Shown here: one piece after another, positions 8,445-64,000 of the stretch
How the letters are laid out: each line of letters starts with the position of its first letter
Position numbering within the stretch: the stretch's first letter is position 1
IMG/VR virus record: IMGVR_UViG_3300017971_000201
Coordinates: 64,001 to 128,000 of that record
DNA from: a virus
Length of the DNA: 64,000 bases
Direction: 5' to 3' (one strand)
The notes under the pieces: generated by a model
Seen by the model: only the letters and a program-made list of their open reading frames with translations
Databases searched by the model: none
What the model was told of the DNA's origin: nothing
Translations under genes and position numbers: made by a program

Positions 8445-8454
8445 CTCGTCTCTC

Positions 8455-31614: not shown

Positions 31615-31661
31615 GTTCTACCCGGGTCTTCCGACAGTCGGAGCTGAACCCTGGGTAGAAC
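31615..31661. promoter_or_regulatory. Back-to-back divergent GGGTAGAAC promoter pair
   Basis: GTTCTACCC 31615-31623 and GGGTAGAAC 31653-31661, each 6 nt from an SD or ATG. Confidence 0.7.
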
Positions 31662-32597: not shown

Positions 32598-32604
32598 GAG
32601 AGCC

Positions 32605-32613
32605 GGGTAGAAC
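32605..32613 (+). promoter_or_regulatory. GGGTAGAAC putative -10 element for cas12m and the array
   Basis: Same motif as about 9 other gene starts; followed by SD AGGAGG and GTG 32638. Confidence 0.6.
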
Positions 32614-32637
32614 GTCGATGCGACCAGGAGGCGAAGC

Positions 32638-34602: not shown

Positions 34603-34612
34603 GAGAGATGCT

Positions 34613-34999
34613 CTCGCGGTCCCATCGGAACGGGTTGTGGTTCCGACAACGTGGACTGGGAACGCTTCTACAGAGCCTTCGCTCTCGCGGTCCCATCGGA
34701 ACGGGTTGTGGTTCCGACACGCACCAGAGTCCCTTCCCGGCCCGCCGCGCTCCACTCGCGGTCCCATCGGAACGGGTTTGTGGTTCCGACACAGGTAAAT
34801 GCAGGTCCCCAGGTGCTTGTGGCTCGCGGTCCCATCGGAACGGGTTGTGGTTCCGACACAGGTAAATGCAGGTCCCCAGGTGCTTGTGGCTCGCGGTCCC
34901 ATCGGAACGGGTTGTGGTTCCGACGTAGCAGAAGTAGTCGCCGATCTCGACCTCCACCACGTCCTCGCGGTCCCATCGGAACGGGTTTGTGGTTCCGAC
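34613..34999 (+). CRISPR. CRISPR mini-array: 6 repeats CTCGCGGTCCCATCGGAACGGGTT(T)GTGGTTCCGAC, 5 spacers (36, 36, 32, 32, 39 nt)
   Basis: Repeats at 34613, 34684, 34755, 34823, 34890, 34964; 7-bp stem TCGGAAC/GTTCCGA; spacers 3 and 4 identical. Confidence 0.97.
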
Positions 35000-35011
35000 A
35001 GATTCATGTAG

Positions 35012-35052
35012 GCGGGCGGTAAGGCGGCTACCTCCGCATCGCCGCCGCCCGC
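35012..35052 (+). terminator. GC-rich hairpin after the last repeat (possible end of the array transcript)
   Basis: GCGGGCGG ... CCGCCCGC inverted repeat; no clear U-tract. Confidence 0.4.
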
Positions 35053-35075
35053 TTCGGAACCCGCGCCCTGATGCA

Positions 35076-35106
35076 GAAAGGGCGACGACCGAAGTCGCCG
35101 CCCCCT
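35076..35106 (-). terminator. Intrinsic terminator of the major capsid gene
   Basis: GGGCGGCGAC-TTCG-GTCGTCGCCC-TTTCT, about 30 nt after the stop. Confidence 0.85.
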
Positions 35107-35133
35107 CCGCTGACAGCTGGTCTAGCCCGAGGG

Positions 35134-36567: not shown

Positions 36568-36579
36568 CGGCTACCTCCT

Positions 36580-39399: not shown

Positions 39400-39466
39400 C
39401 GGTGTCTCCGTAAGGCTGGATGGTTGGGTGAGTAATCTACCGGTTCAGCTGAGTGGGCCGGGTAGC

Positions 39467-40720
39467 CTACTCGATCCCCTTCATCGCCTCCATCGCGTCG
39501 TCCAGGTCTGCCGCGAGCGCCCGCAGGTCGTCGGCCGCGTCGTTGATGTCCGCCTCGCCCTCGGCGATCCGCTGGGCGACGGCCGCCGAGTCCTCGGCGA
39601 TCGACTCGAGGTGCCGGCCCATCGCCACGCGGGGGTCGTCCTCCTTGTCCTCCTCGTCGAGCGTCTCGTCCTCGTTGACCTCCTCAGCGATCCGCTCGTA
39701 GAAGGTCGTGGACGTCTCGTAGATGCTCCTGAGACCGTCGATCAGCTCCTCGGCGGCCGAGTCGTCGCTCTGGACGGCCTCGCGCAGGTCGTTGAGGTTC
39801 TGGACCAGCTCGGAGATCGGGTTGCCCTGGGTCTCCACGTCGGCGGCCATCTTCTTGCCCTTGATCCTGGCCTTGACGTCCATCGCCGTCACGCCCTGCT
39901 GCGCCTTGAGCCGCTTCTTGAGCGCCTTGCGCATCCTGGGGCTCGCCGACCGCATCTTCTTGCGGAACTCGGCCCTGGCCTGGGCGCCGGCCTTGAACTC
40001 GTGGCCGCCGATCATCATCCGACCACGCTTGGCTGCCTTGAAGGTCGACTTCTTCATCTTGCCGCGCTTGAGCAGCCGGCCCTTCTTGCGCCGGGCCTTC
40101 CTGAGCGCTCTCAGCGCACCGGCCCGCTTGGACGCCTCGTCGAGGACCCCGTCGGTGATGCACTCGTACGCCTCGATCACGCCGACCAGGTCGTCGTAGG
40201 ACGGCGCGTCGTCGTCCTCGGTCATCGCCTGGAGGCCGTCGTAGAAGAACCCGAGCACCTCGGCGGCGGCCTCCATCTTGGGGTCGTCGATCTCCTCGTC
40301 CTCGTCCTTCTCCTCCTCGTCCTCGTCCTCGTCCTCGTCCTCTTCCTCGTCCACGCTCGACTCGAGCGCCTCGATGAAGACGTCCACGAACTCGTCGCTC
40401 TCGAGCGCCTCGTCGACCTGGTCCTCGTCCAGCTCGAGCGTCTCCATGAACTCGCCGACCGCCTCGAAGAACTCGTCCTCGTCGATCTCGATCTCCTCGT
40501 CCTCGTCCTCGGCGCGGACGTCGACCTCGGTCCTGGGAGTCTCATCGTCGTACTCCCGACCCTCGGTCTGCTCCTCCTGGCCCTCGTCCTCGTCCTCGTC
40601 CTCGTCGTCACCGCCCTTGGACGACGGGCAAGCATCGGCCTCGGCGAGAAGGTGGCCCATTCCGAGAGCCTGGAGATCCTCCTCGATCGTGGTCTGGGGT
40701 CCGTGGTCTCCCAGCATCAT
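39467..40720 (-). CDS. Highly acidic prohead core protein with a basic central block
   Basis: D/E tracts plus a K/R block; between portal and protease. Confidence 0.65.
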   Translation of the reverse strand: MMLGDHGPQTTIEEDLQALGMGHLLAEADACPSSKGGDDEDEDEDEGQEEQTEGREYDDETPRTEVDVRAEDEDEEIEIDEDEFFEAVGEFMETLELDEDQVDEALESDEFVDVFIEALESSVDEEEDEDEDEDEEEKDEDEEIDDPKMEAAAEVLGFFYDGLQAMTEDDDAPSYDDLVGVIEAYECITDGVLDEASKRAGALRALRKARRKKGRLLKRGKMKKSTFKAAKRGRMMIGGHEFKAGAQARAEFRKKMRSASPRMRKALKKRLKAQQGVTAMDVKARIKGKKMAADVETQGNPISELVQNLNDLREAVQSDDSAAEELIDGLRSIYETSTTFYERIAEEVNEDETLDEEDKEDDPRVAMGRHLESIAEDSAAVAQRIAEGEADINDAADDLRALAADLDDAMEAMKGIE

Positions 40721-40724
40721 GGTC

Positions 40725-41561
40725 CTACTCCTTCGTTTCGTTCGCGTTGTCTTGCTCGGCCAGGCTCGAGAGGAACTTGGCTCCCATCAGAAGGTGGCTC
40801 GCCATACTGGACACGCCCTCGTAGACGCCGGCCAGCTCGGCCTCGTCATCGCGGCTCGCAGCATCGAGCGCCTGGATGGCGTACTTCATGTCCGCCGCGA
40901 TGTCCCGAGCGGCCTCCTCGATCTCCTTCGAGGTACCCTCGGCCTTGGAGAGCAGCTGGATCGACTCGGCCGTGCTCTTGGCGGCCGTGGTCAGCGCTGC
41001 CCGGAGATCATCGACGCTCCCCGGCAGGTCGTGAGCGCGAGGGGCGGGGATCTCGATCTGTGCGTCCTCGCCGACTCCCTCGCGCACGACCTTGTGCCAC
41101 CAGGCGTCCCGCTGGATGGAACGCTTGGACACCTCGGTCGCGACCTGCTCGCCGAGATCGCCTTTGTAGTTGAGCGCATTGGCGATGCCCGCAACCAGCG
41201 GTATCGCCGCGTCGTAGTCGTCCGCCAGGATCATGGAGACAGCCGCCTTGGCCGTTTCCATGACCTCGGCTCCGACGTCCCCCACCTTGTCGGGGATGTC
41301 GAAGACCTCCACCTCGCCCAACTCGATCTTGCCGTCCTCTTCCTCGATCCGCACGCGCATCAGGATGCCGTTCTTCTCGGCGAGCGCGTGGTGAGGATAC
41401 GTCGCGAGGAGCTGAGCCGGTCCGGCTGCCCACTCGGAGCTGGCTAACGCCTCCGCAATACGATCACGTCGGAACTCGAGCGACCCCTCTCGCAGATGGG
41501 AGAGAACATCCTCGGCCTGCCTCACGTTCCGCAGGAGACTGATGATGGCTGCATCCTTCAC
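40725..41561 (-). CDS. Probable prohead core protein
   Basis: 278 aa, acidic and helical; position after the portal. Confidence 0.55.
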   Translation of the reverse strand: MKDAAIISLLRNVRQAEDVLSHLREGSLEFRRDRIAEALASSEWAAGPAQLLATYPHHALAEKNGILMRVRIEEEDGKIELGEVEVFDIPDKVGDVGAEVMETAKAAVSMILADDYDAAIPLVAGIANALNYKGDLGEQVATEVSKRSIQRDAWWHKVVREGVGEDAQIEIPAPRAHDLPGSVDDLRAALTTAAKSTAESIQLLSKAEGTSKEIEEAARDIAADMKYAIQALDAASRDDEAELAGVYEGVSSMASHLLMGAKFLSSLAEQDNANETKE

Positions 41562-41623
41562 GGCGGGATCTCCCTCCCTAACTTTCTACGGTCTACATCT
41601 ATCCTGCGCAACTAGGTTTGCGC

Positions 41624-44600
41624 CTACTGACCGTGGAATCTTCGGGTCATCGCGAGCAGCTCCTTCCGGGAGAACTTCCCGGATGGCGGAGCGGACATGC
41701 TGCCGCCGTTGGTTCGGCGCAGCAGGCCACGGACCTCCTCGAAGAACGCGCGCCGCTCGTGCTCGCGCCTGGCGAAGCCTTTGTCGCCCTCCAACAGACG
41801 ATTGAGCTTGTCCGAGATCTCGGAGTGCCGGCGGCTCGACTCCCTGTACTTCCATTCCTCGAGACGTCGCTCGTAGTCGTAGCGCTTCCACTCCTCTGGC
41901 GTCGGTTTCTTCCCCTTGCCGACCGCCGGGGCCTTGGGCTTGGGCGACGGCTTGGGCGCCGGCTTAGGGGTTCCCTCCTCCTCCTCCGGCGGCGCTTTCT
42001 CTGGCGCCTCCTCCGGCGGAGCCTCCTCCGGCTCTTCCTCCCCGCCCGGCGGCGGGGCCTCTGGCGGCCCGCCCTGGCCGCCGCCCATCGCGTAGCTGGG
42101 CAGATCGCCGGCCTGCTCCTCCTCGGAGTCCTTCTTCTGTTGCTTCTCGATCTCCTTGATCTCCTCCTCGGAGAACTTGAGGATGTTCTCCTGGATCCAG
42201 CGGGTGCTCACCCACGGCTGAATCCGGCTCGCGTAGTCAGCTGCCGCGTTCATGGTCTCGTAGGCCGCCAGCTCCCAGATCCCCGAGGGCACGGTCATCT
42301 CGATCGTGAACTCGGGCTTCCAGGGATCGCGCACGCCGCGAGCGGCCAGGTGCGTGCGAATGACCCTCTCCCAGCCGATCTTCAGCTCGCGCTGGAGATT
42401 CAGGGTCACCCGGGCCGCGCGAACGTCGTCGTTCGACAGAATCGACTTCGACGGCGGGGCCTCGTCCTTGCCCAGGTAGGCGCGCGGGACCTTCAGTGTC
42501 GCGTGGAGCATCTGCTTGAAGTACTCGACATCATCGACGGCCTGGTAGTCCGGGCCGGAGAGGACGTCCACCCTGGCCAGCTCGCGGCCCTCGCGAACGG
42601 CGATGAAGAAGTCCTCGTCACGGGCGAGAGGGTTGTAGCGGAGATCCAGCCGGCCGGATCGGGGGTTGACCATCCGCTTCTTCTTGAGGTCCCGCTTCGC
42701 CTTCTGAAGGAATGCGCCGACCTGGTCGGACGGGATGTCGGTCGTGTCGATGTAGTAGGCGTAACGAGCTGGCGCGCGCGTGTTGTGCACCACGCACCCG
42801 TCCGCGACGAAGTTGTGCTCGTCGGCCTCGACACCGATGTCATAGATGTCATCTGTCTCGATTTCCTCGACGCCGCGAATCACCTCTGTCTTCGCCTGGG
42901 GCTTGAAGGAGACGTCCAAGCAATAGGACGTGCTGGTCGGAAGCGGCTTGCTGGAGCCTTTGATCGTTCGACCGCCCGCTCGCGTACGAGACCAAACGAA
43001 GGTGGCGACCAGCCCGAGTTGCATGGCCAGCTCGCGCACATCCTCCAACAGCTGCTTGTTGCACATCTCGAAGCGAGCGCGCTCGTAGCGCGTCTTCCTT
43101 CCCTCCTTGCGGGGCTTGATGTGTGCGTCCGCGTCGGCAAGCCCTCGGATCATGGCCAGCTTGAGCTTGGGATGCGCTCGGAAGATCCACTCCGGCAGAC
43201 GCTTGTGGTGGGCGCCGGGGACGAACCCGTTGAGCGTCATGAACTCAGCGAACTTGCCGGAAACGATCGTGTAGGCGCCTAGCCGGTGGCCGGTATCGCC
43301 GACCAGCTTGACTGGCGCATATTTCTCGAAGAGAGCCTTGTACTGCTCGTTGATGTCCTGGTGCGCCCCAAGCGCGAACCCGGTCTCGTTCTGAGCAACG
43401 TGAGCCTCAGAGTGACCTGGGCGCAGCTTATGAGTGCGGGTGGCGACGAACCCGTCCCCGAGCATGAACCCCCACCACCGCGCGAAATCCGCGTCGGCGG
43501 TTTCCGGGACCGTGATCCCTGTAACAGGAGTGCCGCGCTCACCGCCCCAGTGCTCCTCGATCTCCAGATGCTCTGGGCCGTGACCGTTGGCTTCCAGCAA
43601 CGCTACGGCAGTATCGGTCTTGAGGTCATAGTCGCCGGCGAAGAAGTCGCGTGCCCGGCAGTGATGCACACCGACCTGCTTCGCAATCTTGGGGTAGGGC
43701 ATGGTCCGCTCGACAGCCCCGACGAGTCGCGCCTTGCTGTGGAGCTGCGGCCTTTCGAGGTAGATCTCCTCCCAGTCGTCTTCGTTCTTGGAAGGGGTGA
43801 CGAACCTGTGCACGCCAGGCTCAAGGTTCTGGACCTCCACGTAGTCCAGCCGGCGGATCTGGGGAATACCCTTGCCCCGGCCGACAACCGTCTCGACCAG
43901 AACAGGGTGCGTCCTGTTGGCGAAGATCTCCCTGTGGTCGCTGAAGACGCGGAAGATCTTGTCCTGGCCGTTGTGCTTCTTGTAGACGACCTTCGTCTTC
44001 TTCAGCCGGTGATCGTTGCCCGGATCGGTGTAGGAGTAGACCTCATCTCCCTCCTGTAGATCCTTGATTGCCTTACGGCCGTCTGGCGTCCAGATCTGAG
44101 AGTCTCCGCGCAAGCAGAGCTTGTAGATCAAGACCGAGTCCTCGAGCATCACCAGCCGCTTCCAGATCCAGCGAGCGCCCTCAGCGACCGAGACGCCGTA
44201 AGGCGACCGCCGCCGCGTCGCGCGCAGGCGGAAGTGGGCAACCTGCCAGTCCTCGAACAGGGCGAGACTCCTGGGGATCTCGACGTTGCCGGCGAGCATC
44301 CGCCGCAGCTCTTGGCTGTTCGCGGTGAACTGGCCGGTGACGTCCTGCACGAAGCCGATCAGACCGCCGTCCAGACGCTCGACCCGGCGCATCGTGGGAA
44401 CCGGGAGCGTATTGGTCCCGACGATCCCGTTCTCGGTAATGAGCAGCTCGAGGTAGTCGTTGCCCATCATCCCGAGGCCGTAAGCCTGTGGCCAGATCTC
44501 GTCCTCGACCCGCAGGATCCGGTGCATCAGGTCATTGCCCAGGCCCTTGAGAGCGTCGTCCTCCGACATGACCCAGATGCAGCGGCCGTCCTTGACCGAA

Positions 44601-48167: not shown

Positions 48168-48290
48168 CTAGTCGCCTAAGTCCAGCATCGTCGTAACCCC
48201 CATAGTCACGTAGGACCATGACATCCTACGGCTAGAGGCCATTCATGGCGAGCACAAGTCCAGTCGGTGGAGCTGGGTAGAACATCCAGA

Positions 48291-49412: not shown

Positions 49413-50270
49413 GTGAGCTACAGGCGACAACGATACGTGAAGATCCCCGAAGGGTCAGACACTCCCCTGACGAAGGCGGAGTTTCTGGCCCACGTATCGC
49501 GCCTGGGCACTGATCTGGCGCTCGCGCGCTACCGCTACGAGCACACCATCTGCAAGGATCTGCCGAACCGGCAGTGCCTCGACGAGGAAGAGCACCAGCT
49601 CTGGCAGCTCGCGCACGAGTCCGCGAAGCGGCTGTGCGACCGCCACGACATGAGCGCGATCGAGAAGCTGGCCGAGATCGCGAAGCGGGAAGAGGCCGAG
49701 GCGATGGCGGAAGCCAAGCGCGAGGTCGTCTACTCCTCGGCCGTGGACAAGCTGCTCGAGGATCACAATGCGCCGGTCCGCAAGTTCGCCCTCGAGCAGC
49801 CGTCGCACGAGGTAGTTCGCCTCGCCATGGCGCTGCTGGACTACGCGGGATGCGAGGAGCGTGTTCCGGCCATCCTGAGAGAGCTGGACGACGCCCGCGA
49901 TTCGCAGCGCTACTACAACAATCGGCTGAAGACCTGGGCCAGCTGCGCCCACGCTCCACCAGTCTGGAAGTGCCCCCGGTGCGAAGGCGAGGGGCACATG
50001 GGCGGCACCAAGTATGCGAAAGACCCATGCAAGCTCTGCGACGGACGCGGCTTCGTGCTCGCCGACGCAGACAGCAAGTACGACCAGTCGCACGACTACG
50101 ACGAGTTGGACCTGACATACGAGGGTCGCCAGGCGATCAACAGAGGAGACGCCTGGACGCCGGAAGACGAAGCCAACGCCGCTGGCTACGAGTCGATCGA
50201 GGACGCCGAAGAGGACGGTTGGCAGTTACCCGACTGGTTCAATCCGACGGCTGAAGAGAAGGCAGCGTGA
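49413..50270 (+). CDS. Hypothetical protein with DnaJ-type zinc finger
   Basis: SD GAGGAG, GTG 49413; CPRCEGEG..CKLCDGRG. Confidence 0.7.
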   Translation: MSYRRQRYVKIPEGSDTPLTKAEFLAHVSRLGTDLALARYRYEHTICKDLPNRQCLDEEEHQLWQLAHESAKRLCDRHDMSAIEKLAEIAKREEAEAMAEAKREVVYSSAVDKLLEDHNAPVRKFALEQPSHEVVRLAMALLDYAGCEERVPAILRELDDARDSQRYYNNRLKTWASCAHAPPVWKCPRCEGEGHMGGTKYAKDPCKLCDGRGFVLADADSKYDQSHDYDELDLTYEGRQAINRGDAWTPEDEANAAGYESIEDAEEDGWQLPDWFNPTAEEKAA

Positions 50271-53521: not shown

Positions 53522-53544
53522 GGGTCGAACCTCCTGGTGTGGTT

Positions 53545-53748
53545 CTACCCGGCGTTTCCACACTCCCGGACGTCGATCAGCTTCCTCAGCGCGCGGAAGG
53601 ACTCGCGGCGAGGGTTGATGCCGAGGCGCAGAACCGATCGCGCGACGGCCATCATCTTGGTGCTCCCGTGAGCGAAGACCTCGTCCCGGAAGAACTGGGG
53701 CGTCTTCTCGTCGAGGTGCGTCAGGGCGATCAGGTAGTCCGGCTGCAT
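53545..53748 (-). CDS. Hypothetical protein (67 aa)
   Basis: SD AGGAG before ATG. Confidence 0.55.
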   Translation of the reverse strand: MQPDYLIALTHLDEKTPQFFRDEVFAHGSTKMMAVARSVLRLGINPRRESFRALRKLIDVRECGNAG

Positions 53749-53837: not shown

Positions 53838-54236
53838 TTACGTCTCAGATTCGCCGGACAGCCCACGGCGCGGCCACGGCCGGCGGAGCGCGTCGAGTAT
53901 CTGCTGCCGGCCGGTCAGCGGCCCCTCGTGTTCCGGCTCGTGCTCGGGCTCCGGCTCGGGCTCCGGCTCGGGCTCTGGGACCGGCCGCCTCCGACGACGT
54001 CTACAAGCCGGAGGACTCAGCTTGGGCAGCTCCCTGGGATGTTCCTTGTGGATCGGAAGCACCGCCGACTCGTACTCCTCCCACGTGTGACCGCCCGTGT
54101 GGATTACCCGCAGGAAGTCGGTGTAGATCGAACGCTCTTTGCGTCGGTACTTCTCCCAGATCCGCGTACAGTGCTCGTTAACGGCGTACTCGCCGTAGGC
54201 CCGGCGGGCAACCAGCTCCTTCTCGTGGTCGGTCAT
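53838..54236 (-). CDS. Hypothetical protein with PE repeat
   Basis: ATG 54236 coupled to the upstream stop; (PE)n tandem repeat near 53930-53975. Confidence 0.55.
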   Translation of the reverse strand: MTDHEKELVARRAYGEYAVNEHCTRIWEKYRRKERSIYTDFLRVIHTGGHTWEEYESAVLPIHKEHPRELPKLSPPACRRRRRRPVPEPEPEPEPEPEHEPEHEGPLTGRQQILDALRRPWPRRGLSGESET

Positions 54237-54604
54237 CGGTAAGGATCGATCCCGACCTCGCCGTAGCGCGTGCTGACGAACCCGTCGCGCCCGCACGTGA
54301 GCGACTCTCGCTCCGCGCGTCTGAGGAGATCGCCGAGCCGGTCGACGACGCTCGCGTTCGGATCAGGGATGATGGTGAGGCCGAGCTGGAGGAAGATCTC
54401 GCCGCCCTCGCGCTCGTCAACCGAACCGCACTGCAAGTAGACCTCGCCCTCCGGCTTGACCACCGAGCCAAACAGCGTTCGCACCAGGTCGCGGATCGTG
54501 CGATCCGGCGAGAACGACTTCGGCTTAGGCTCCGGCTGCGTCAGAGGAGTCTGCTGCCTCACCCCCTTCTTCCGCCTCGCCTTCTTCCGCTTCTTCCGCG
54601 CCAT
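54233..54604 (-). CDS. Hypothetical protein with peptide tag
   Basis: Contains SVVDRLGDLL. Confidence 0.6.
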   Translation of the reverse strand: MARKKRKKARRKKGVRQQTPLTQPEPKPKSFSPDRTIRDLVRTLFGSVVKPEGEVYLQCGSVDEREGGEIFLQLGLTIIPDPNASVVDRLGDLLRRAERESLTCGRDGFVSTRYGEVGIDPYR

Positions 54605-55627: not shown

Positions 55628-55676
55628 CGATCCTCCTAGAGCGCCTCGCTCACGGTGGCGTTCTACCCTCGTTCGC

Positions 55677-56033
55677 CTATCGGTTGTCACCCTCGCCGTG
55701 TAGCACGCCACGGTCTTTTCGATCGGACAGCTTGGCGACATTGGCCTCCAGCACCTCGTTGACGCTGAAGCCAAGCTCGGTGCAGACCTGGGAGAAGTAC
55801 CAGGCGATGTCGCCTAGCTCGCCCTTGATCGCCGGGTCTTCGCAGAGCGTCATCAGGTTCTCGCCGCCCCGGAGCCGCTTCTTGAGCTTCTCGGCGAACT
55901 CGCCGAGTTCGCCCATCAGGCCGAGGACCGTGTAGACGATCCGAACGTCGTCCTTGTCCATCGGCGGTACCGAGTCCACGTAGATCGCGGTGCCCCGCGC
56001 CCTCGCCTGGTAGATGTCTCCGTCCATGCTCAA
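55677..56033 (-). CDS. mazG: MazG-like nucleotide pyrophosphohydrolase
   Basis: LGL.GE.GE..EK.KK, ELGD..WY, N..KL.DR..RG...G.GDNR. Confidence 0.92.
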   Translation of the reverse strand: MSMDGDIYQARARGTAIYVDSVPPMDKDDVRIVYTVLGLMGELGEFAEKLKKRLRGGENLMTLCEDPAIKGELGDIAWYFSQVCTELGFSVNEVLEANVAKLSDRKDRGVLHGEGDNR

Positions 56034-56494
56034 TCTCCTGGTGGTGTCAGAGCGCCCAGCGCGTCGATCGCATCCAGGTGCTCGGTGAGTCCGAGCTGGA
56101 GAACGCGTTCCAGCTCGTCGGCGAACTCGCCACGATACCGCATGGAAAAGAATCGGAACGCGTCGAGCGTCGCCGTCATACAGATACTCAGCTGGGCCAC
56201 CGATCGCCGTTGGATCTCCTCGGTACTAAGGTCCAAGGAGGCGAACCTGGGCCGAGTCGGGTGGTAGCCACCGCGCACTCGTACAGTCTTCGGCTCCGCA
56301 GCCGTCCGCATCGAGTGTAGAGCGGTGCTCACCTGAGCTGCACTCCGCCGAACATCGTCGTATCCAGGCTCTCGGCCGCGCGCGTTCAGGTAGCCGCCGA
56401 CGCCATCGAAGACGGCTGCGAGCTTCTTCCAGCTCACGCCTCGCGCGATGCACTTGTCGAAGAGGCCCTGTAGGCCGACGATGCGGTCTTCCAC
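56030..56494 (-). CDS. Hypothetical protein with peptide tag
   Basis: GTG 6 nt after TAGAAC; ends DAIDALGALTPPGD. Confidence 0.65.
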   Translation of the reverse strand: MEDRIVGLQGLFDKCIARGVSWKKLAAVFDGVGGYLNARGREPGYDDVRRSAAQVSTALHSMRTAAEPKTVRVRGGYHPTRPRFASLDLSTEEIQRRSVAQLSICMTATLDAFRFFSMRYRGEFADELERVLQLGLTEHLDAIDALGALTPPGD

Positions 56495-56570
56495 AATGAG
56501 GTTCTACCCAGCGCAGCGGACACCGGAACCGAGCTGAGCATCTCGACACGGTTGCCGAGATCTAAACGAC

Positions 56571-59500
56571 TTACGATCGCGTCGTCTTCAGCTTCCGCCG
56601 CCTCGCGGGCGGCGTCAGCGCAGACCTCGGATCCTCCACGGGAGCGGTTCCCACGCCCGTGCGCGACGAGCCCTGGACCGGTGAGCTGTAGCGGCTCGGG
56701 AAGTCCACCGACTCCTGCTTCGCGACGTGGGCGTAGATGACCTCCTCGGCGTCATGCGGATCCAGCCCGAGCTTCTCGGCGTAGGCGTGGAACTTGTCAT
56801 CGTCGAGACCAGGGTTCGCCTTCACGAAGGCGACCAGCTTCGCCTTCTGCTTCGCCGTCGGATCGTCCTCCTCCTCGACGCCGGCCTCCTTCTCCATCCT
56901 CTTCAGTCTGGTGTAGTAGTCCGGGATCTCCGCGAGGTGGTCCATCGCGATCTCTTGGGCCTTGGCCCGCATCTCCGCCTTGGAGTAGCCGCCACCGACC
57001 AGGTGCTCCTTCTCGACCTCGATCCCCATCGCCAGCTCTTTGGCGTCGAAGTCGCTCGGCTTCTTTCCCTTGGCCTTGCCGCCAGGAATCTCCTCGGCCT
57101 CGCAGAGCGCGCAGCGAACACCGAGCGTCACCAGCTCGCGGCGCTCGAGCACGGACGACAGGCTGTCACCGAACAGATCCTCGTCCTCACGCAGGTCCAC
57201 CCGCTTGTCAGGCGCCATGAACGTGCGGAAGCGGTCCATGATGTCCTTCGTGAGCTTGTAGCGGCTCTGGATCTGGTGCCCCTTGCCGATGTAGGCCGCG
57301 AAGATCTCGGCGAAGTCCTCGTAGCGCTTCGACGCGCCGTAGACGCTGGGGAAGTCGCCGGTCTCCTTCCCCTTCTCGGTCGGCTGCTTCGCCAGACCGA
57401 AGTACCAGGCGTAGGTCTTCCGGCGCGCGCGCGGGATCTCTCGGTAGTAGTAGTGGTGGCCCAGCTCGTGGACCATCGTGGTCATGATCTTGGCCGGCTC
57501 CTTCTTCGCGCCGATCGAGTTGACGAAGATCTCGACAATCTTCGTCTTCATGTCGTAGTTGCCGAGCACCCCGGGATGGCCGGCCCGCAGGTGCATCGTC
57601 ACGTTCGGCAGCATGAAGCCGAAACCGCGCTTCTTGAGCAGGCCCACAGCATCCTTGCAGGCCACCGCGTATCGGTCCCAGGTCTCCTGGTCGACCCCGA
57701 GATCGTTGAACAGCATGATGCCATTCACCTTCGCCTGCTTGGGACCTGGCTCGCCGGTCGCCCACGGCAGTTTCGCTGGCTTCTTCGCGGCCTTCGCGAT
57801 CTGCACGAGCGGAGATGGCGGCTTCTTCCCCTTCTTCTTCTCCGACTTCATCGAGGCCAGCGCGCCCTTGAGCGTCGCGCCGTCGCCCCGGTAACGGTAG
57901 TGCGGCTTCGGCTGGCCCTGGAGCTTGACCGTGAACGAACCATCCGAGCGCGGACGGACCTTGAACTTGCCACCACCCTTGAACGAGAAGTCGAAGCCCT
58001 TGGGTGATGCCGAGTACTTGTCGACCTTGAGCGACTTGCCGGCCAGCTTGCTCGAGACCGACTCCACATCCTTGACCAGCGCCTTGGCATCCTTGGGACC
58101 GGCCTTGCTCTTGGTAGCCGTCGCCTCGGTCAGCCCATCGGACACGGTTGCACCGAGCGGAACCTGGTACTTCTCGTGGCCCCACAACTCCAGGTCAGTC
58201 ACCTTCCAGCTCCCTTCGGGCCGGTAGCCGGTGTAAGCCGGCTCGCCCGGGTTGATGTAGGCCAGCGTCGCGTGTGCCTTGAACTGCTCGGCATAGCCCT
58301 TCTTCGGGTCCTCGTCCGGCCCGTAAGTGTGCGCGATCGGAATACCCGCCTGCTCGGCCGCCTTACGAAGAGCCTCGTGCAGGCTGTTGAGACTCGACTG
58401 CTCCGGCCAGGCGGAGCCGATCATGTGTGGGATCGTCTGGCCGTCGTTGTTCGTGAACTCTCCGTAACCGCCCATCCGCATCAGGAACGGCTCATGGGAG
58501 CGCGCGACCCTGCCGACCGCGTCGACCAGTTTCCCGTAGTCAGCTGGGGAGAGGTCGCCGGCGTAGAGCACCGTGAAGTGAGGAACCGAGTCGTCCTCCT
58601 CGCTCTTGTCCGGGAAGTAGCGGGCCAAGTTCGACGGAACCGGAAGGAAGACGCCGCAGGACATCGTCCCGTCCCTGTTGACCTCACGCTCCTCGGTCCG
58701 CACGCCGTCTGGGTGCCCGTGAATCCGCCTACGGACCTCCTGCCACATCTCGTCGTCGACCGGCCGCTCGTGCGCGGCGACGATCTCGTCAGCGAGCCTC
58801 TGGTCCTCGGCGCTGAGATCTTCTGTCAGAGACCCGACAACCCGCTCGAACAGCGTTGCCCCGTCCGGGTCGATCGACTCGCCCCAGTCGGCCATCGTGG
58901 ACGTGTCGGGGATCATGGCCATCAGCTTGGCGATGTCGGCCTTCGTGACGCCCTTCTTCTTGGCCGCCTTCTTCTTGGCCGCCTTCTTCTTGGTGGTCTT
59001 CTTCTTGGTGGTCTTCTTCTTGGTGGTCTTCTTCTTGGTGGTCTTCTTCGCCTTCGGCTTCTCCGGCTCGGGGGCCGGCGGCGGCACAGGCTTGGGTTCT
59101 GGGGGAGGCTTGGGCAGCGGGGCCGGCGGACCTTCCTCTTCGCCCTCCTTCGGCGGCGGCAGGACCCACGTCAACGCCTTCTTCGCGCGCGTGATCGCCA
59201 CGTACTTCAGGTTCTCTTCCTGCTGGATCTGAACCGGGTCCTCCGACTTCAGCGCCATCGGCAGCGGCAGCAGGTCGGGCCGCTGGATGAAGACGTTGTC
59301 CGCCTCGAGCCCCTTCGCCTTGTGCACCGAGGAGAAGTTGATGGCCGGTGTCGGGTCCGACACGAACAACTGCTGGACCACCTTGACCAGATCGCCGGCG
59401 ACCTTCACATCGCCCTTCGACATAAGCGCCTGGAGGCAGTCGCGCTTGTCGTCGAGACCCTGGAGCAGGTGCTCCTTCTTCTCGGCCGTGAGCCGCTTCG

Positions 59501-61583
59501 TCTCCTTCATGTGCCAGTCCTGCACCTTCGCAGCGAACTGGTCAATTGGCATGGTCTTGTGGCCCTTCTTGCCGCCGATCCTCTCGACCAGCCGGCTCAG
59601 GGACTTGCCGATGTCGCGGCCGACGACGTTCGCCTTCTTGCCCTGGGCGATCAGGCCCAGCGCAGCGGCCACGTTCGGAGCGTTGGTGCGGCAGAGCACG
59701 AAGTCGCCCGGCTTGAGCGTCTCGTAGAACTCTCCGTGCTTGATGGTCTTGACCGAGCCCTCGGGAGCGCCCGGAGCTGCCTCGATCGTGGGAACAATGG
59801 CCTGGGCCTCGGTGATGACCTTCTGCGGGCAGCGGTAGCAGATAGAGAGTGGCTTCTCCTCGGCGCCCAGCTCTTTCTGCATCTTCTCCATCGAGTCTGG
59901 GTCCGACCCCTTGAAGGCGTAGATCGACTGGTTGGGGTCTCCCACCAGCATGTGGCGCGGGGCGAGCCGCTTGGCGAACTCGCGCTCGAGCGGGCAGAGA
60001 TCCTGGACCTCGTCGACCATCGCCCAGTCGAGGCTCGCCTTCTTCCCGGTCGCGCGGCTGATGATCGGCAGGTCGTGCATCACCGGCCAGAGCACCTGGT
60101 CGGCGTACTCCATCGTCGTCTTGTCATCGACGCTCTGCTGGAACGCGGCGTCCAGCACCTCGGTGACCTGCTGCGGCGTGATGTACTCGTCTGTTGGAAC
60201 CGAGGAAGTCGGCAGGTCGATCTCGAACTTGTCCAAGACCTCCTTCCAGGGCGGGAACTTCATCTCGCCCTTCTCGTCCAGCTGGCCCATCATCTTCCGC
60301 TTGGTGATGACCTCGCCCATGTCGTAGCCGTAGTTCGACTCGTACTTGTCGGCCACCTTCTCGTTGGGAGCGAGCTTCTTCACCAGCTCGTCGCAGATGA
60401 GCCGGTTCTTGTTCTTCACCAGCTCGGGCGGCTTGCCGCCCTTCTTGAACGCCTTGACCACCGACGCGCGCCCGTAGGCGTTGATCGTCGCGGCCTCGAC
60501 GTTCTTCAGATCCTTGACGCGCTCGGCCAGCGCGTTGGCGATGTCGGTGTTGAACGCGAGGAACACGGCCTTCTGCCCTGGAGGCACGAACTCGAGCGCC
60601 TGCTCCATCGTCGTGGACTTCCCGGCGCCAGCCTTCGCGTCCACGACCAGCGCGGCCTTGTCCTTCTTCGACGCCTCGGCGACCCAGTCGAAGATCGCCT
60701 GCTGGTAGTGGCTGGGCTTGAACTTCTTCTTCTTCTTCGGAGGAGGAGGCGGAGCGCCACCGGCCTTTGCTGCCTTCTCGAGTTCCTCCAGGCCCGTCTT
60801 GTACCACTTCGCCTGGCCCTTGCTGGCTAGCCATCCCTTGGCCTTCTTCGGGATGTTGTCGTCCATGAACTTGCGGAGCCAGTCGCCGAGCGTGTGACCG
60901 TGGTCCTTGAACAGCTTCTCGTCTTGCGAGACTGGTCCTCCCGGCCACTGCTCGCTGAACTTGTCCTTCCACGATCCCTCGGCGAGCCGGCCGTCAGTGC
61001 GCTCGTCATCGAGTACCTCAGCCTGCTCGGCCACTTCCGCAGCGCCTTTGGCCGTGCCCCCTGGACCGTGCGCGTCCAGTCCGGCGCGCTCGTTGTAGCG
61101 GCTGGCGTAGCCGTACACCCACTTGAGATAGTCCTCGTCGGCCTCGCGGTTCAGCAGCGCGAGAGCCTTGTAAGCCGAGAGCTTCTCCTCTTCCCGGCGG
61201 CGCTTCGCCTCATCCAGGAAACTCAGCGTCTCGTCGAGGTCGCGCGCGGGCTGATCGGACTCGGTCTTCACCATGCTGCTTGCCTTTTCGATCAGGCCCA
61301 TGATCGGAACTGAGTAGGAGGGGTCGGCCATGTAGCGCGTCCGGTGCTTGCGGATCTCGGCCGCGAGCTTCGGGAAGTCCTTGCAGCACTCGTCGGCCGC
61401 TTCGCCCATATGGCCAATCGCCAGCCACCTGTGCTCCGGGTAACCCTGGACCGCCTCGCCCATTAGCACCTCGGCCTGACTGAGATGTTTGCGAACGCAG
61501 TTCAGGCAAGAGTCCCTAAGCTCGGTCAGGTTCATGGCGCCCCCGGGATCCCCTATGATCCCGTCCGAGGAGGCCGGAGGCAA
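56571..61583 (-). CDS. 1670-aa polyvalent protein: UvrD/Rep SF1 helicase, 2H phosphoesterase, zincin-like peptidase, DUF5661-like domain (start 61583 or 61535)
   Basis: AGAGKST, VDEVQD, VGDPNQSIYAF, SVHKAKGLE, YVAITRAK; PHFTV and AHATL; HELGH..EDFAE; ELAMGIEVEKEH..IAMDHL.E.PDYYTRL. Confidence 0.9.
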   Translation of the reverse strand: MPPASSDGIIGDPGGAMNLTELRDSCLNCVRKHLSQAEVLMGEAVQGYPEHRWLAIGHMGEAADECCKDFPKLAAEIRKHRTRYMADPSYSVPIMGLIEKASSMVKTESDQPARDLDETLSFLDEAKRRREEEKLSAYKALALLNREADEDYLKWVYGYASRYNERAGLDAHGPGGTAKGAAEVAEQAEVLDDERTDGRLAEGSWKDKFSEQWPGGPVSQDEKLFKDHGHTLGDWLRKFMDDNIPKKAKGWLASKGQAKWYKTGLEELEKAAKAGGAPPPPPKKKKKFKPSHYQQAIFDWVAEASKKDKAALVVDAKAGAGKSTTMEQALEFVPPGQKAVFLAFNTDIANALAERVKDLKNVEAATINAYGRASVVKAFKKGGKPPELVKNKNRLICDELVKKLAPNEKVADKYESNYGYDMGEVITKRKMMGQLDEKGEMKFPPWKEVLDKFEIDLPTSSVPTDEYITPQQVTEVLDAAFQQSVDDKTTMEYADQVLWPVMHDLPIISRATGKKASLDWAMVDEVQDLCPLEREFAKRLAPRHMLVGDPNQSIYAFKGSDPDSMEKMQKELGAEEKPLSICYRCPQKVITEAQAIVPTIEAAPGAPEGSVKTIKHGEFYETLKPGDFVLCRTNAPNVAAALGLIAQGKKANVVGRDIGKSLSRLVERIGGKKGHKTMPIDQFAAKVQDWHMKETKRLTAEKKEHLLQGLDDKRDCLQALMSKGDVKVAGDLVKVVQQLFVSDPTPAINFSSVHKAKGLEADNVFIQRPDLLPLPMALKSEDPVQIQQEENLKYVAITRAKKALTWVLPPPKEGEEEGPPAPLPKPPPEPKPVPPPAPEPEKPKAKKTTKKKTTKKKTTKKKTTKKKAAKKKAAKKKGVTKADIAKLMAMIPDTSTMADWGESIDPDGATLFERVVGSLTEDLSAEDQRLADEIVAAHERPVDDEMWQEVRRRIHGHPDGVRTEEREVNRDGTMSCGVFLPVPSNLARYFPDKSEEDDSVPHFTVLYAGDLSPADYGKLVDAVGRVARSHEPFLMRMGGYGEFTNNDGQTIPHMIGSAWPEQSSLNSLHEALRKAAEQAGIPIAHTYGPDEDPKKGYAEQFKAHATLAYINPGEPAYTGYRPEGSWKVTDLELWGHEKYQVPLGATVSDGLTEATATKSKAGPKDAKALVKDVESVSSKLAGKSLKVDKYSASPKGFDFSFKGGGKFKVRPRSDGSFTVKLQGQPKPHYRYRGDGATLKGALASMKSEKKKGKKPPSPLVQIAKAAKKPAKLPWATGEPGPKQAKVNGIMLFNDLGVDQETWDRYAVACKDAVGLLKKRGFGFMLPNVTMHLRAGHPGVLGNYDMKTKIVEIFVNSIGAKKEPAKIMTTMVHELGHHYYYREIPRARRKTYAWYFGLAKQPTEKGKETGDFPSVYGASKRYEDFAEIFAAYIGKGHQIQSRYKLTKDIMDRFRTFMAPDKRVDLREDEDLFGDSLSSVLERRELVTLGVRCALCEAEEIPGGKAKGKKPSDFDAKELAMGIEVEKEHLVGGGYSKAEMRAKAQEIAMDHLAEIPDYYTRLKRMEKEAGVEEEDDPTAKQKAKLVAFVKANPGLDDDKFHAYAEKLGLDPHDAEEVIYAHVAKQESVDFPSRYSSPVQGSSRTGVGTAPVEDPRSALTPPARRRKLKTTRS
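58984..59049 (-). repeat. 15-bp tandem repeat encoding KKTTK (histone H1-like linker)
   Basis: ttcttcttggtggtc x4, followed in the protein by KKKAA repeats. Confidence 0.85.
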
Positions 61584-61592
61584 GGAGAGGTT

Positions 61593-61925
61593 CTACTCCC
61601 GGAGATCGATCAGGAGCGGCATCAGCTCCACGACGCTCATCTGCTGAAGCTCGAGAAGCCGGTCCGCGATCTCGTCGCGCGCTAGCCGCGCGGCCCTGCC
61701 CATGTGTTGCGCCTTGAGCGTCGTCGGTGTGCAGGCGTCGATCAGAAAGATGAGATGCTCCGCGTTCCTCTGGTCCTTGGGGGCAGTCCGCCAGGCGACC
61801 CACCGATCCCTGTGCCGCCTGATCACTCGCCGCACTCGTCGTGCGAACGGCCGCATCTTGAACTTGGGGTGACTACTTGACCGACCGGCCGGCCACCGGC
61901 CGGACCGGGTGCCGCTCAGGCTCAC
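61593..61925 (-). CDS. Hypothetical protein with tag-like C-terminus
   Basis: GTGA coupling at 61925; ends SVVELMPLLIDLRE. Confidence 0.55.
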   Translation of the reverse strand: MSLSGTRSGRWPAGRSSSHPKFKMRPFARRVRRVIRRHRDRWVAWRTAPKDQRNAEHLIFLIDACTPTTLKAQHMGRAARLARDEIADRLLELQQMSVVELMPLLIDLRE

Positions 61926-62302
61926 GAAGCTACCCTCAGCTGGACGATGTTGCCGAGCCGCTCGACGGCCGAGACCTCGGCGTAGTCCTCGATCGCCGCG
62001 ATCCGCTTGAGGATCGCCCGGCGAACCTGCATCTGGGTGCACTCCTCCATCAGCGCGAAGAGCAACTCGCGGAGAACGAGGAGCGCCTGCTTGTTCCAGA
62101 GAGGCATGTTGATCATGACGCCGCCGCGAACGGTCTCGCGATCGAGGGTCTCGGCGACCTTCCTGTAGTGCGTGTAAGCTGCCGCTCGCTCGCGCTCGCT
62201 GGTCTGGTACACGAGCAGCGCATCAGTCTTCCGCCGGAGCACAATCCGAAGATCGCTACAGATGCGGCGGGTGAGGCGAATGCTCTTGCCGGACTTGCTC
62301 AT
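61922..62302 (-). CDS. Hypothetical protein with peptide tag
   Basis: ATG 6 nt after TATGAT; ends SAVERLGNIVQLRVAS. Confidence 0.65.
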   Translation of the reverse strand: MSKSGKSIRLTRRICSDLRIVLRRKTDALLVYQTSERERAAAYTHYRKVAETLDRETVRGGVMINMPLWNKQALLVLRELLFALMEECTQMQVRRAILKRIAAIEDYAEVSAVERLGNIVQLRVAS

Positions 62303-62309
62303 GCCGGCA

Positions 62310-62852
62310 TCATACCGGCGGCAGCGGCGGAGCAACGGCCGGCGGACCCCCGAAGATCCGACCGAGCAGATTGTCGTCGTCGTCGTCGTCGTCATCGGCG
62401 TCGTCTTCGTCGTGCTCGACGTCGATCAGCTCCCCGATCCAGCGACAGGTCCACTCCCGGCCCTCGGGAACTCCCAGCTCGCGCTTGCGCGCGGTGATCC
62501 GGCGCTGACGGGCCTCGATCTCGTCCTTGTCGGCGAGGTTCGACAAGAGCGTGATCGGATCCACGCGATCGAGAGGCGCCCAGTCATCGTCCTCGCGCCT
62601 CCGCGCGTGGGCAAGCGAGATCGGCTGCCCCTGAGACGTGTAGACCCTGGTCTCGTAGATCGGATCCCCGGTACGCTCATCGAACTTGACCAGGTTCTTC
62701 GTGGCAACGAAAGGCAGCTCCCAGACCCGGACCTTTCGAGCTTCCTCTGACAGCCGCCTTCGCCAGCCGAAGGAGTCCATCACCAGCTTGACGAGGCTCT
62801 GCCGAACCGCGACGCGGATGCCGCTAGACCTGATCGCCGAATCCAAGTTCAT
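62310..62852 (-). CDS. Hypothetical protein with peptide tag and Asp tract
   Basis: Contains DPITLLSNLAD; SD GGGAGGAG. Confidence 0.65.
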   Translation of the reverse strand: MNLDSAIRSSGIRVAVRQSLVKLVMDSFGWRRRLSEEARKVRVWELPFVATKNLVKFDERTGDPIYETRVYTSQGQPISLAHARRREDDDWAPLDRVDPITLLSNLADKDEIEARQRRITARKRELGVPEGREWTCRWIGELIDVEHDEDDADDDDDDDDNLLGRIFGGPPAVAPPLPPV

Positions 62853-63057
62853 GGATCTCCTCCCACCTCGCGATGTCTGCTAGTCGATCCACAGCCGAGC
62901 GACCTACCCCTAATGCGTCTGCCATGTCGTCACCGGTCCGACGCATCGTGATCCCGAATCGGAGCATGGCTGCGTAAGCATGGGCAGCGGATACACCGAA
63001 CTTGGCAACGGCGTCTGCAATGGCGCTCACGTCCAGATCTATGCGACCGCCAGCCAC
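62824..63057 (-). CDS. Small protein with peptide tag
   Basis: Contains SAVDRLADIA; SD AGGAGGAG. Confidence 0.6.
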   Translation of the reverse strand: MAGGRIDLDVSAIADAVAKFGVSAAHAYAAMLRFGITMRRTGDDMADALGVGRSAVDRLADIARWEEIHELGFGDQV

Positions 63058-63317
63058 GCTCGCTCCTCCTTCTCCCGGACCAGGTCACCGAGCATCGTGA
63101 CGATGTCCTTCGGCCGCCACGGAATCCAGTCGTTCTGGAGGCCGGCGTAACGGTAGTCCACCAGCCGTGCGGCCTGTGGACACACAGCGCGCGCGGGCTC
63201 CTTGAGGGCCGGCGTCTTCTGGACGTCCGGGTCCCAGGTCCAGTAGACAGCGACGTCACCGCTGCACCGAACAGCGATCCCGACCTCGCTGAGCTTGCAC
63301 GCCTGCTGGTAGGTCAC
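63039..63317 (-). CDS. Small protein with peptide tag
   Basis: GTGA coupling; contains DIVTMLGDLV. Confidence 0.6.
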   Translation of the reverse strand: MTYQQACKLSEVGIAVRCSGDVAVYWTWDPDVQKTPALKEPARAVCPQAARLVDYRYAGLQNDWIPWRPKDIVTMLGDLVREKEERAWLAVA

Positions 63318-63532
63318 GGGGAGGGCTCCACCAGACCGCCGAGGGCCTCGACCGCACACTCGTGCTCGATCTGGTCGACTGTCACCCAGGTGCGCCAGCT
63401 GCCGCCGTCGATCCGCACCGAGAACGGGGTCAGCTCCTTCTCATCGATCTCGATGATCCTGGCGGACATACCCTGGTTGACCTGGGCATCAGTCGCCTTG
63501 ACCACGATCTTCTGGCCCACGCGGAAGTTCAC
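63314..63532 (-). CDS. Small KOW/SH3-like protein with peptide tag
   Basis: FRVGQKIVV..ARII.ID; ends CAVEALGGLVEPSP; GTG 6 nt after TAGAAC. Confidence 0.65.
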   Translation of the reverse strand: MNFRVGQKIVVKATDAQVNQGMSARIIEIDEKELTPFSVRIDGGSWRTWVTVDQIEHECAVEALGGLVEPSP

Positions 63533-63821
63533 ACCCCGGTTCTACCCCGGACGCCAGACGCCCCAGCTCGGAAATCGCATCACGCGCTTCCGGGAACGGC
63601 TCCCACTCGTCGCTGTTCTTGATCAACTCCGGCACCATGTCGGCCGCGTAGTGGTTGGCGTTGCAGATGGTAGGCCGGCCGAACGCGTCGAGGGTGACGT
63701 TCAACCGGCTGGAGAGGCAGAACTTGTCCTCTTCGTCCATGTCCTCGCGGTAGCCGGGCTCCTTCACCACGTAGGAGGCGACTCGCCTGATGCTCCAGTA
63801 GAGCGCATCGCGGAACCTCAC
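63489..63821 (-). CDS. Small protein with peptide tag
   Basis: Contains DAISELGRLA. Confidence 0.6.
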   Translation of the reverse strand: MRFRDALYWSIRRVASYVVKEPGYREDMDEEDKFCLSSRLNVTLDAFGRPTICNANHYAADMVPELIKNSDEWEPFPEARDAISELGRLASGVEPGCELPRGPEDRGQGD

Positions 63822-63892
63822 AGGTTCCGTTCTAGCTCATCGGCCTCATCAGGGGCCAGGTCGCCGAGGTCGCCCTCGTCGAAGGCCGTCAC
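63818..63892 (-). CDS. 24-aa acidic micro-ORF
   Basis: GTGA overlaps at both ends; MTAFDEGDLGDLAPDEADELERNL. Confidence 0.45.
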   Translation of the reverse strand: MTAFDEGDLGDLAPDEADELERNL

Positions 63893-64000
63893 GGATCGAT
63901 CGCCCCAAGGCGCTCGATACTGCTCATCGCCTCGAGCCTCTCGATCCGGCTCTCGATCGCGCCGCTGATCCCTGGCGCCTGGTGCGGGTTCGCAGCAGCG
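63889..64000 (-). CDS. 3' end of a gene starting beyond the right edge, with peptide tag
   Basis: Reads ..IESRIERLEAMSSIERLGAIDP-stop. Confidence 0.55.
   Translation of the reverse strand, partial: AAANPHQAPGISGAIESRIERLEAMSSIERLGAIDP

Follow-up and report, generated by a model that had tools for sequence, protein, structure and literature searches.

A short peptide motif, referred to here as the tag, is carried by many otherwise unrelated proteins encoded in a 64,000-nucleotide stretch of viral DNA (the window), which comprises bases 64,001–128,000 of the 159,664-bp IMG/VR record IMGVR_UViG_3300017971_000201 (G000). We found that the tag marks a quarter to a third (about 25–37%) of the proteome of this phage family. 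It is strongly enriched over chance, is selected at the level of the peptide, is modular, and is divided into dialects that differ between related phages. We suggest, with a probability of about 0.58, that the tag is a portable docking helix, or address tag, for one shared receptor. A preliminary description of the window, made from its letters alone, had put the motif on about 15 proteins, which proved to be a considerable underestimate, since about 50 proteins are tagged in the whole G000 record and about 100 in a complete relative. It had also overlooked the differences in dialect between related phages. A full-text literature search found no published description of such a tag, in agreement with what had been stated earlier. 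In kind, the tag is a variant of known docking motifs; for its scale and its dialects, we found no published counterpart.

The G000 record has a G + C content of 65% and a CheckV completeness of 58%. The major capsid protein, which has the HK97 fold, belongs to the T4 gp23 type and is about 30% identical to the capsid proteins of T4-like and huge phages; a blastn search against isolated phages matched no related isolate. For comparison, we used a small family of IMG/VR relatives, each characterized by the identity of its capsid protein to that of G000. These are G001 (275,101 bp, complete, with terminal repeats; 95% identical), G002 (131 kb; 81%), G003 (120 kb; 80%), G007 (73 kb; 77%), G004 (203.5 kb, 89% complete; 69%), and G005, a 135-kb fragment, together with G006 (both 68%). 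Two further contigs were included: L163, an IMG/VR contig of 119 kb whose sample also yielded G003, and L164, the 218-kb contig JBINOL010000610.1 of a relative in an NCBI metagenome assembly. Genes were called with a self-trained codon model, which gave 202 gene products for the G000 record. The motif profile was iterated and built from the whole genome, and a match of at least 13 bits was counted as a site.

The iterated profile for the G000 record has the consensus [E/P]-P-S-A-[VI]-[DE]-[RQ]-L-[GA]-x-[LIV]-[AV]. With this profile, 53 sites were found in 51 of the 202 G000 proteins, as compared with 0.2 in shuffles, and 34 of the 53 sites are within 20 amino acids (aa) of the C-terminus. In the complete relative, G001, 99 of the 389 proteins have a site (101 sites in all, 68 of which are within 20 residues of the protein end), and there are 76 sites in G003 (205 proteins) and 12 in G002. 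For these four genomes, the shuffles gave 0.1–0.25 matches, so the enrichment is 100- to 400-fold. The regular expression of the preliminary description gave 30 matches among the 202 G000 products, against a mean of 0.12 and a maximum of 2 in 2000 residue shuffles; 22 of the 30 matches are within 35 aa of the C-terminus, where 0.02 would be expected. In a six-frame scan of G000, 53 matches were in the called frames; of the remainder, 4 were within genes but in one of the other five frames, and 4 were outside any called gene. Thus, the motif withstands the comparison with shuffles and shadow frames, recurs in related phages, and has the bias toward the C-terminus or a domain end that was first described.

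The carriers are mostly proteins of 60–150 aa, with the tag usually 1–20 residues from the end, and about a third of the copies in the A dialect (see below) are internal or N-terminal. Several proteins bear two or three tags; most bear only one. The tagged genes lie in the accessory and replication regions. The virion block of G001 (185–260 kb) is nearly tag-free, and the structural genes in general are almost without tags, as had been noticed for the core virion genes. On contig L163 (1–5300), there are 18 consecutive small genes, 16 of which have an A-type tag, mostly in an extended form that is described below.

Within the tag, the pairwise identity at third codon positions is 0.3–0.55, equal to that of the flanks, while that at the first and second positions reaches 0.9–1.0. 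The Ser of the tag is encoded by both TCN and AGY codons, and the synonymous choice mostly follows genome usage, with mild codon preferences at tag positions 3, 4, and 8. The freedom of the third codon positions means that it is the peptide that is under selection, and the earlier observation that codons differ between copies with conservation at the protein level is borne out. In 17 orthologue pairs from G001 and G003, the tag is 65% identical, as compared with 36% for the protein body.

The anatomy of the tag is that of a capped helix. An N-cap residue, Ser, Asp, Asn, or Thr (position 0), usually after Pro, is followed by about 2.5 turns of amphipathic helix, with the hydrophobic face fixed at positions 2, 5, 8, and 9 and a small residue at position 6, where Gly is as common as Ala. 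An acidic residue is present at position 3, or at position 0 in a swapped D-x-x-T form. Both S-x-x-[DE] and the swapped D-x-x-T are helix capping boxes. In an AlphaFold2 model of a 126-aa protein from the window, with a predicted local distance difference test score (pLDDT) of 83, Ser111 N-caps the last helix, residues 112–125, after a loop, and the pLDDT of the tag helix is about 75. The helical propensity of the tag is thus shown in one predicted model. When the PDB was searched with this model by Foldseek, nothing matched at E ≤ 0.001, and an ESM Atlas feature search found nothing. Only 3 homologues of the 126-aa protein were found among 5.8 billion proteins, which is too few for a deep alignment. 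For the exonuclease domain of the DNA polymerase with three tags, AlphaFold2 gave no usable model (pLDDT of 37 from a 3-row alignment). We considered that the motif might be a prohead-protease, ADP-ribosylation, or phosphorylation site, and this was dropped because E3, R4, and S0 are each replaceable.

Sequence comparisons indicate that the tag is a portable module and not one protein family. When the motif was masked, an all-against-all BLASTP linked only one pair of tagged proteins, and the tagged proteins have no Pfam or PHROG family in common. The tag is C-terminal, beyond the catalytic domain, in an RNase H, is at residue 22, in the N-terminal part, of an HNH endonuclease, and is internal in a DnaB_C/AAA_25 protein; further carriers are DUF6011 and zinc-ribbon-like proteins. 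The most telling example is the PolA-type DNA polymerase of G001, which has three tag-like insertions in loops of its exonuclease domain. These are absent from the G004 orthologue, and a more distant relative, known from an NCBI metagenome assembly, has a tag in the same loop as the first insertion. Neither G004 nor G007 has a tag on its RNase H orthologue, showing that tags are gained and lost. A tagged protein of 125 aa (L002 13998–14372, minus strand; record 13,995–14,372) has a segment, residues 32–74, that is 58% identical to residues 83–124 of the major capsid protein, and this capsid fragment is followed by an extended tag module. The extended module, EPSAV[DE]RLAAL-x-DP-x4-RV-x2-[WY]D, defines a paralogous sub-family with about 7 copies per genome. 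A profile of the extended form found 146 clusters (≤50% identity) of proteins of 48–229 aa among 1.84 billion proteins, and Pro−1, Ser0, Arg4, Leu5, and Ala6 are each present in >90% of these clusters. Therefore, the tag is widespread in uncultured relatives.

The form of the tag depends on the phage. The type A pattern has 43, 87, and 63 matches in G000, G001, and G003, respectively, and the A profile found nothing in G004, G005, G006, and G007. Other dialects were sought by a de novo motif search of the last 35 residues of small proteins. In G004, this gave type B, [NTS]-[VP]-L-D-[RAK]-L-[AGS]-x-I, with 33 sites at ≥14 bits, as compared with 0.3 in shuffles. Of these strong sites, 19 are within 3 residues of the C-terminus, most of them exactly terminal (…LDRLAEI-COOH), and the type B pattern x-[VP]-L-D-R-L-A-x-I-COOH has 27 matches in G004. 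In G007, there is a type C, [DSN]-[ILM]-V-[DTE]-x-[IV]-[GA]-x-L-[DEN], with 14 sites, compared with 0.1 in shuffles, and G002 has its own form, x-V-[VI]-[DE]-R-L-A-E-L-x-COOH. No tag was seen in G005 or G006, both of which are fragments with few small genes. The dialects have a common register, consisting of the N-cap, a hydrophobic residue at position 2, an acid at 3, a hydrophobic residue at 5, a small residue at 6, and a hydrophobic residue at 8. They diverge at positions 1, 2, 5, and 9, with no cross-matching, and orthologues change dialect at homologous positions.

In the window itself, all 16 of the peptides originally quoted exist in the genes to which they were assigned. Twelve of them share the motif, with scores of 11–28 bits in the profile, and the other four are unconvincing and at the level of noise (DIVTMLGAG, 2.2 bits; DPITLLSNL, 7.4 bits; STIDVMAAT, −9.2 bits; SVVELMPLL, −4.8 bits). 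The statement that nearly every gene between 61.6 and 64 kb is tagged holds for most of them. This region (61593–64000, minus strand) is an operon-like run of eight small co-directional genes, six of which have a good tag. These six tags, all on the minus strand, are SAVERLGNI (61946–61972; 26.5 bits), 7 aa before the stop of the 126-aa gene at 61922–62302; SAVDRLADI (62872–62898; 26.3 bits), 15 aa before the stop of the 77-aa gene at 62824–63057; DIVTMLGDL, a D..T capping variant (63081–63107; 17.8 bits), 13 aa before the stop of the 92-aa gene at 63039–63317; CAVEALGGL (63332–63358; 19.5 bits), 5 aa before the stop of the 72-aa gene at 63314–63532; DAISELGRL (63555–63581; 17.7 bits), 21 aa before the stop of the 110-aa gene at 63489–63821; and SSIERLGAI (63898–63924; 19.7 bits), 2 aa before the stop of the 116-aa gene at 63889–64239, which crosses the window end. 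The peptide SAVERLGNI is invariant in the 3 known homologues of the 126-aa protein.

Elsewhere on the minus strand of the window, DAIDALGAL (56048–56074; 22.3 bits) is 5 aa before the stop of the 154-aa gene at 56030–56494, SVVDRLGDL (54326–54352; 20.4 bits) is 30 aa before the stop of a 109-aa gene at about 54233–54562, which was missed by our gene caller and is present in public calls, and SAIDLLGAL (6367–6393; 27.8 bits) is 5 aa before the stop of the 87-aa gene at 6349–6612. A weaker tag, DPVTGLGRL (31246–31272, minus strand; 11.0 bits), is 3 aa before the stop of the 120-aa gene at 31234–31596; the same form, D-P-V-T-R-L-G, is inserted in the G001 DNA polymerase. Two tags on the plus strand are internal. 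SGVDQLAEL (31839–31865; 20.2 bits) is at residue 58 of the product of the 309-aa gene at 31668–32597 and is retained in the G001 orthologue, and SAIEKLAEI (49653–49679; 24.3 bits) is at residue 73 of the product of the 277-aa gene at 49437–50270, which has a weak zinc-finger-like match below Pfam cut-offs. The antisense frame of this last gene contains another perfect tag-like peptide, SSVDRLATL (50121–50147, minus strand), which is either a chance match or part of an unrecognized overlapping gene.

Directly upstream of the tagged gene cluster, there is a 1654-aa multidomain protein (window 56571–61535, minus strand), with a UvrD helicase domain, a 2′-5′ RNA ligase-like domain, DUF5661, and Lys/Pro-rich linkers. 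The window also contains 8 copies of the DNA element GGGTAGAAC, compared with 0.17 expected, at 31653–31661, 32605–32613, and 48275–48283 on the plus strand and at 31615–31623, 53542–53550, 55660–55668, 56501–56509, and 63539–63547 on the minus strand. This sequence belongs to a longer element, GTCG-N8-CyGGGTAGAAC, which lies upstream of dozens of G001 operons. GGGTAGAAC lies 6 nucleotides before the start of two tagged genes, 63314–63532 (the copy at 63539–63547) and 56030–56494. The longer element often ends 5–6 nucleotides before the start codon, which suggests that it is a promoter for leaderless mRNAs.

How might the tag work? In the mechanism that we favor, the docking helix would be appended mostly at C-termini, and less often at an N-terminus, a domain boundary, or a surface loop, of proteins that are mainly small accessory proteins, together with a PolA-type DNA polymerase, an RNase H, and an HNH endonuclease. 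One common receptor would bind the helix in a hydrophobic groove and so treat all tagged proteins alike, in the most plausible case by recruiting them to a single site or machine on the replicating phage DNA. The receptor groove would vary between phage lineages, and we propose that a lineage-specific groove is the reason that each lineage has its own dialect. A phage-wide addressing system had been put forward in the preliminary description; its basis, a modular and selected peptide on unrelated proteins throughout the genome, is confirmed, and the hub that it called for was not identified.

What is the receptor? The phages have a conserved replication module (L002 6301–7410, minus strand, and neighbors; G001 31,955–43,639) that encodes a helix-turn-helix protein, a DnaN-type clamp, an IstB/DnaC-like helicase loader, DnaB, a Toprim primase, a CbbQ/CobS-like AAA+ protein, a CobT-like vWA protein, an SSB-like protein, and PolA. 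The DnaB of the module is intein-bearing in the G000 record, PolA also bears an intein, and the SSB-like protein has 261 aa and an acidic tail, …DSGAISF. The T4 clamp, gp45 (PF02916), was not found in five records; the A lineage alone has a clamp, which is of the DnaN type. A family-B polymerase was not found in the phage family. A literal T4 clamp reading was therefore rejected, as both gp45 and the family-B polymerase are absent. The loader, DnaB, and primase are present in G004, which is 89% complete and has about 30 tags, and in G005, and neither has a DnaN-like gene. A 528-aa gene of G004 at the syntenic position of the clamp is not a clamp. The CbbQ/CobS-like and CobT-like pair, a MoxR-vWA machine, occurs in both lineages (G001, G004, G005, L163, and L164), and the DxSxS motif of the MIDAS (metal-ion-dependent adhesion site) is invariant. 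We detected no client for this pair, and G005 has it, yet has no tags in its 135-kb fragment; the records not in this list are fragments. On contig L164, a ClpS-like gene (8283–8618, plus strand) lies between the CbbQ-like and CobT-like genes. A complex prediction that combined the G000 DnaN-type clamp, the CobT vWA domain with Mg, and the last 42 residues of the tagged protein at window 61925–62302 gave a score of 0.00, with controls not run, and it counts neither way. Among the candidates, a host protein seems an outside possibility, the phage DnaN-type sliding clamp is doubtful, another phage protein is equally doubtful, and the CbbQ/CobS–CobT-like pair, for which the case is circumstantial, is improbable.

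We also sought the host itself. A GTDB genome scan with the phage clamp found nothing, and a DNA pattern for PSAVDRLAALA gave one match, in Actinoplanes, which is probably due to chance. The phage has a transfer-messenger RNA (tmRNA) of the ordinary one-piece type (L003 7341–7690; record 27,341–27,690; Rfam RF00023, 126 bits), which has the tag peptide ANAPVRLAA and whose gene sits within an array of about 36 tRNA genes.

The candidate receptors can be compared with known docking systems. The closest precedent comes from phage T4, in which the gp45-binding peptide LDFLF occurs at the gp43 C-terminus and also in a loop inserted in T4 ligase, and adopts an amphipathic helix on binding (PMC6212786); this precedent makes the clamp an attractive candidate. 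The tag is like LDFLF, with its carriers gp43, DNA ligase, gp33, and gp55, in being a short peptide on unrelated proteins, located at a polymerase C-terminus or in an enzyme loop and forming an amphipathic helix. In addition, the L-D-x-L core after Ser/Gly resembles the V-L-D-R-L-A of G004, the carriers include replication enzymes (polymerase and RNase H), and a clamp is encoded in the A lineage. A placement on replisome enzymes is indeed found here, in the loop insertions of PolA and at the C-terminus of RNase H. However, the phage clamp is of the DnaN type, Arg, Gly, or Ala takes the place of the aromatic residues, the carriers number about 100 rather than about 5, and the B lineage is tagged without a detectable phage clamp; clamp binding by the tag is only proposed here. 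Bacterial β-clamp motifs (QL[SD]LF) bind in an extended form with i, i + 2, i + 4 spacing, and the PIP-box is QxxLxxFF. The tag shares with these the principle of one hub, many clients, and a short terminal motif, and its V-x-x-L-x-x-L-V resembles the PIP-box spacing, although it has no Gln and no aromatic residues. The MIDAS sites of vWA domains bind peptides via an acidic residue (PMC7159879), and in cobaltochelatase, the last CobN helices adjoin the CobT MIDAS (10.64898/2026.07.21.739949). Like the MoxR-vWA machines CobS/CobT–CobN, NorQ/NorD, and CbbQ/CbbO, the phage family has a vWA protein with an intact MIDAS, and the tag has a conserved acidic residue; the link is circumstantial, as no test of binding, co-variation, or co-occurrence succeeded.

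Several points weigh against the docking helix. No receptor was identified, so one common partner is what we infer from the shape of the data. To our knowledge, one hundred clients are far beyond any known phage clamp or hub motif. As for the clamp in particular, the tagged G004 has no DnaN-like gene, and so the phage clamp cannot be the universal receptor, and the hydrophobic residues of the tag in the profile columns are spaced i, i + 3, i + 6/7, which is not the spacing of the bacterial β-clamp motifs. Because the B and C patterns come from the very data that were then searched with them, their counts are somewhat inflated. Finally, the gene calls are our own; they match independent public calls wherever compared, including those of tagged genes.

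The best of the alternatives is that the tag is a degron or stability timer, read by a protease or adaptor, so that the accessory proteins would not last long and would be removed as a group at a fixed stage of infection. We consider this unlikely. ClpX, ClpA, and Tsp recognize C-terminal degrons such as ssrA (…LAA-COOH). The tag is mostly near the C-terminus, and the tags of G004 end at a hydrophobic C-terminal residue, with over half of the strong sites there at or within a few residues of the end; moreover, the phage has its own tmRNA with the tag ANAPVRLAA, and L164 encodes a ClpS-like protein. However, the A-dialect tags are followed by 1–20 variable residues, and an internal-loop copy kept in the DNA polymerase across diverged relatives would be odd for a degron. 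The likeness to the tmRNA tag is limited to R-L-A-A, with Gly as frequent as Ala at position 6, and we judged it to be a coincidence. A strict C-terminal degron, a form of one of the earlier suggestions, misfits the internal and N-terminal copies and those inserted in the polymerase.

A capsid- or compartment-loading peptide, which would direct proteins to the procapsid, to be injected, or to a compartment built by the phage, is less likely still. Encapsulation peptides of bacterial microcompartments (BMC) and encapsulin cargo-loading peptides consist of an amphipathic helix or a short peptide at a protein end, attached through a flexible linker, and the tag is similarly a short amphipathic terminal helix after a Pro-rich linker (positions −2 and −1). 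Like those peptides, it is found on unrelated cargoes at the N- or C-terminus or between domains, and the AlphaFold2 model has a loop and then a terminal helix. The phage capsid is of the T4 type with the HK97 fold, and one tagged mini-protein is built from a fragment of the major capsid protein. On the other hand, BMC shell (PF00936) and encapsulin (PF04454) domains had no match in five records, including the complete genome, so no shell gene was found for the compartment import that had been entertained at first, and the carriers are an order of magnitude more numerous. About 100 cargoes, including a DNA polymerase and an RNase H, are implausible as head contents. The T4 capsid-targeting sequence is N-terminal, is cleaved by the prohead protease at L/I-x-E, and is carried by head proteins. 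In contrast, the tag is mostly C-terminal, has no protease-site pattern, and is present on polymerase and RNase H rather than on virion genes, the tagged genes lying outside the virion block.

It is about as improbable that the tags are stickers, which would bind each other to form a heteromeric body or condensate, cross-linked by multi-tag proteins such as the polymerase, with no receptor. The proteins with two or three tags agree with this, the amphipathic face with its small residue would suit helix–helix packing, and mutual recognition would also yield a whole-genome dialect. Nevertheless, a helix of 9–10 residues is short for a stable coiled coil, and single-tag proteins cannot build a network.

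Common descent has a very small chance of being correct. The tagged proteins would then be one fast-evolving superfamily, with the last helix, packed on its own body, as the sole recognizable part. The extended-module sub-family is clearly paralogous, with its several copies per genome and its clusters in public data, and the tag helix is predicted with fair confidence in one good model. Yet RNase H, HNH, DnaB_C/AAA_25, DUF6011, zinc-ribbon-like proteins, a capsid fragment, and polymerase loops cannot share one fold; unrelated folds are already indicated for the proteins with known domains, and there are orthologues both with and without the tag. The last alternative, a translated DNA or RNA site at gene 3′ ends (a recombination site, terminator, or translational coupling signal), would fit the location near the 3′ ends of tightly packed small genes and the mild codon preferences, but it is close to refuted by third positions as variable as the flanks, two Ser codon families, synonymous choice that mostly equals genome usage, distances to the stop of 1 to >100 codons, and the near absence of the motif from the other five frames.

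We therefore return to the docking helix. In its fullest form, which we hold only tentatively and at somewhat less than even odds, this is a phage addressing system in which one receptor, possibly the CobS/CobT-like MoxR-vWA machine or the clamp, gathers, remodels, or times about 100 accessory proteins and the DNA polymerase, and tag and receptor co-evolve into private dialects. The tag unites into one functional class about 100 small phage genes that are annotated without function and are otherwise unlinked. A 12-residue peptide is an experimental handle that could serve as bait for the receptor, and the dialects are a natural co-evolution data set for finding it. The tag could also recruit engineered proteins to the same site. 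The PRANC/F-box of poxvirus ankyrin proteins, RxLR, PEXEL, and the Legionella E-block are similar in that many accessory proteins with variable bodies share one short address element; their sequence, position, and machinery are unrelated to those of the tag, and only the logic is analogous. Should the receptor prove to be a clamp, a MoxR-vWA machine, or a host hub, it would follow that phages arrange their accessory proteins under one shared address, as is the case for the effectors of eukaryotic pathogens, and the cobS/cobT-like genes that are widespread in phages might gain a function.

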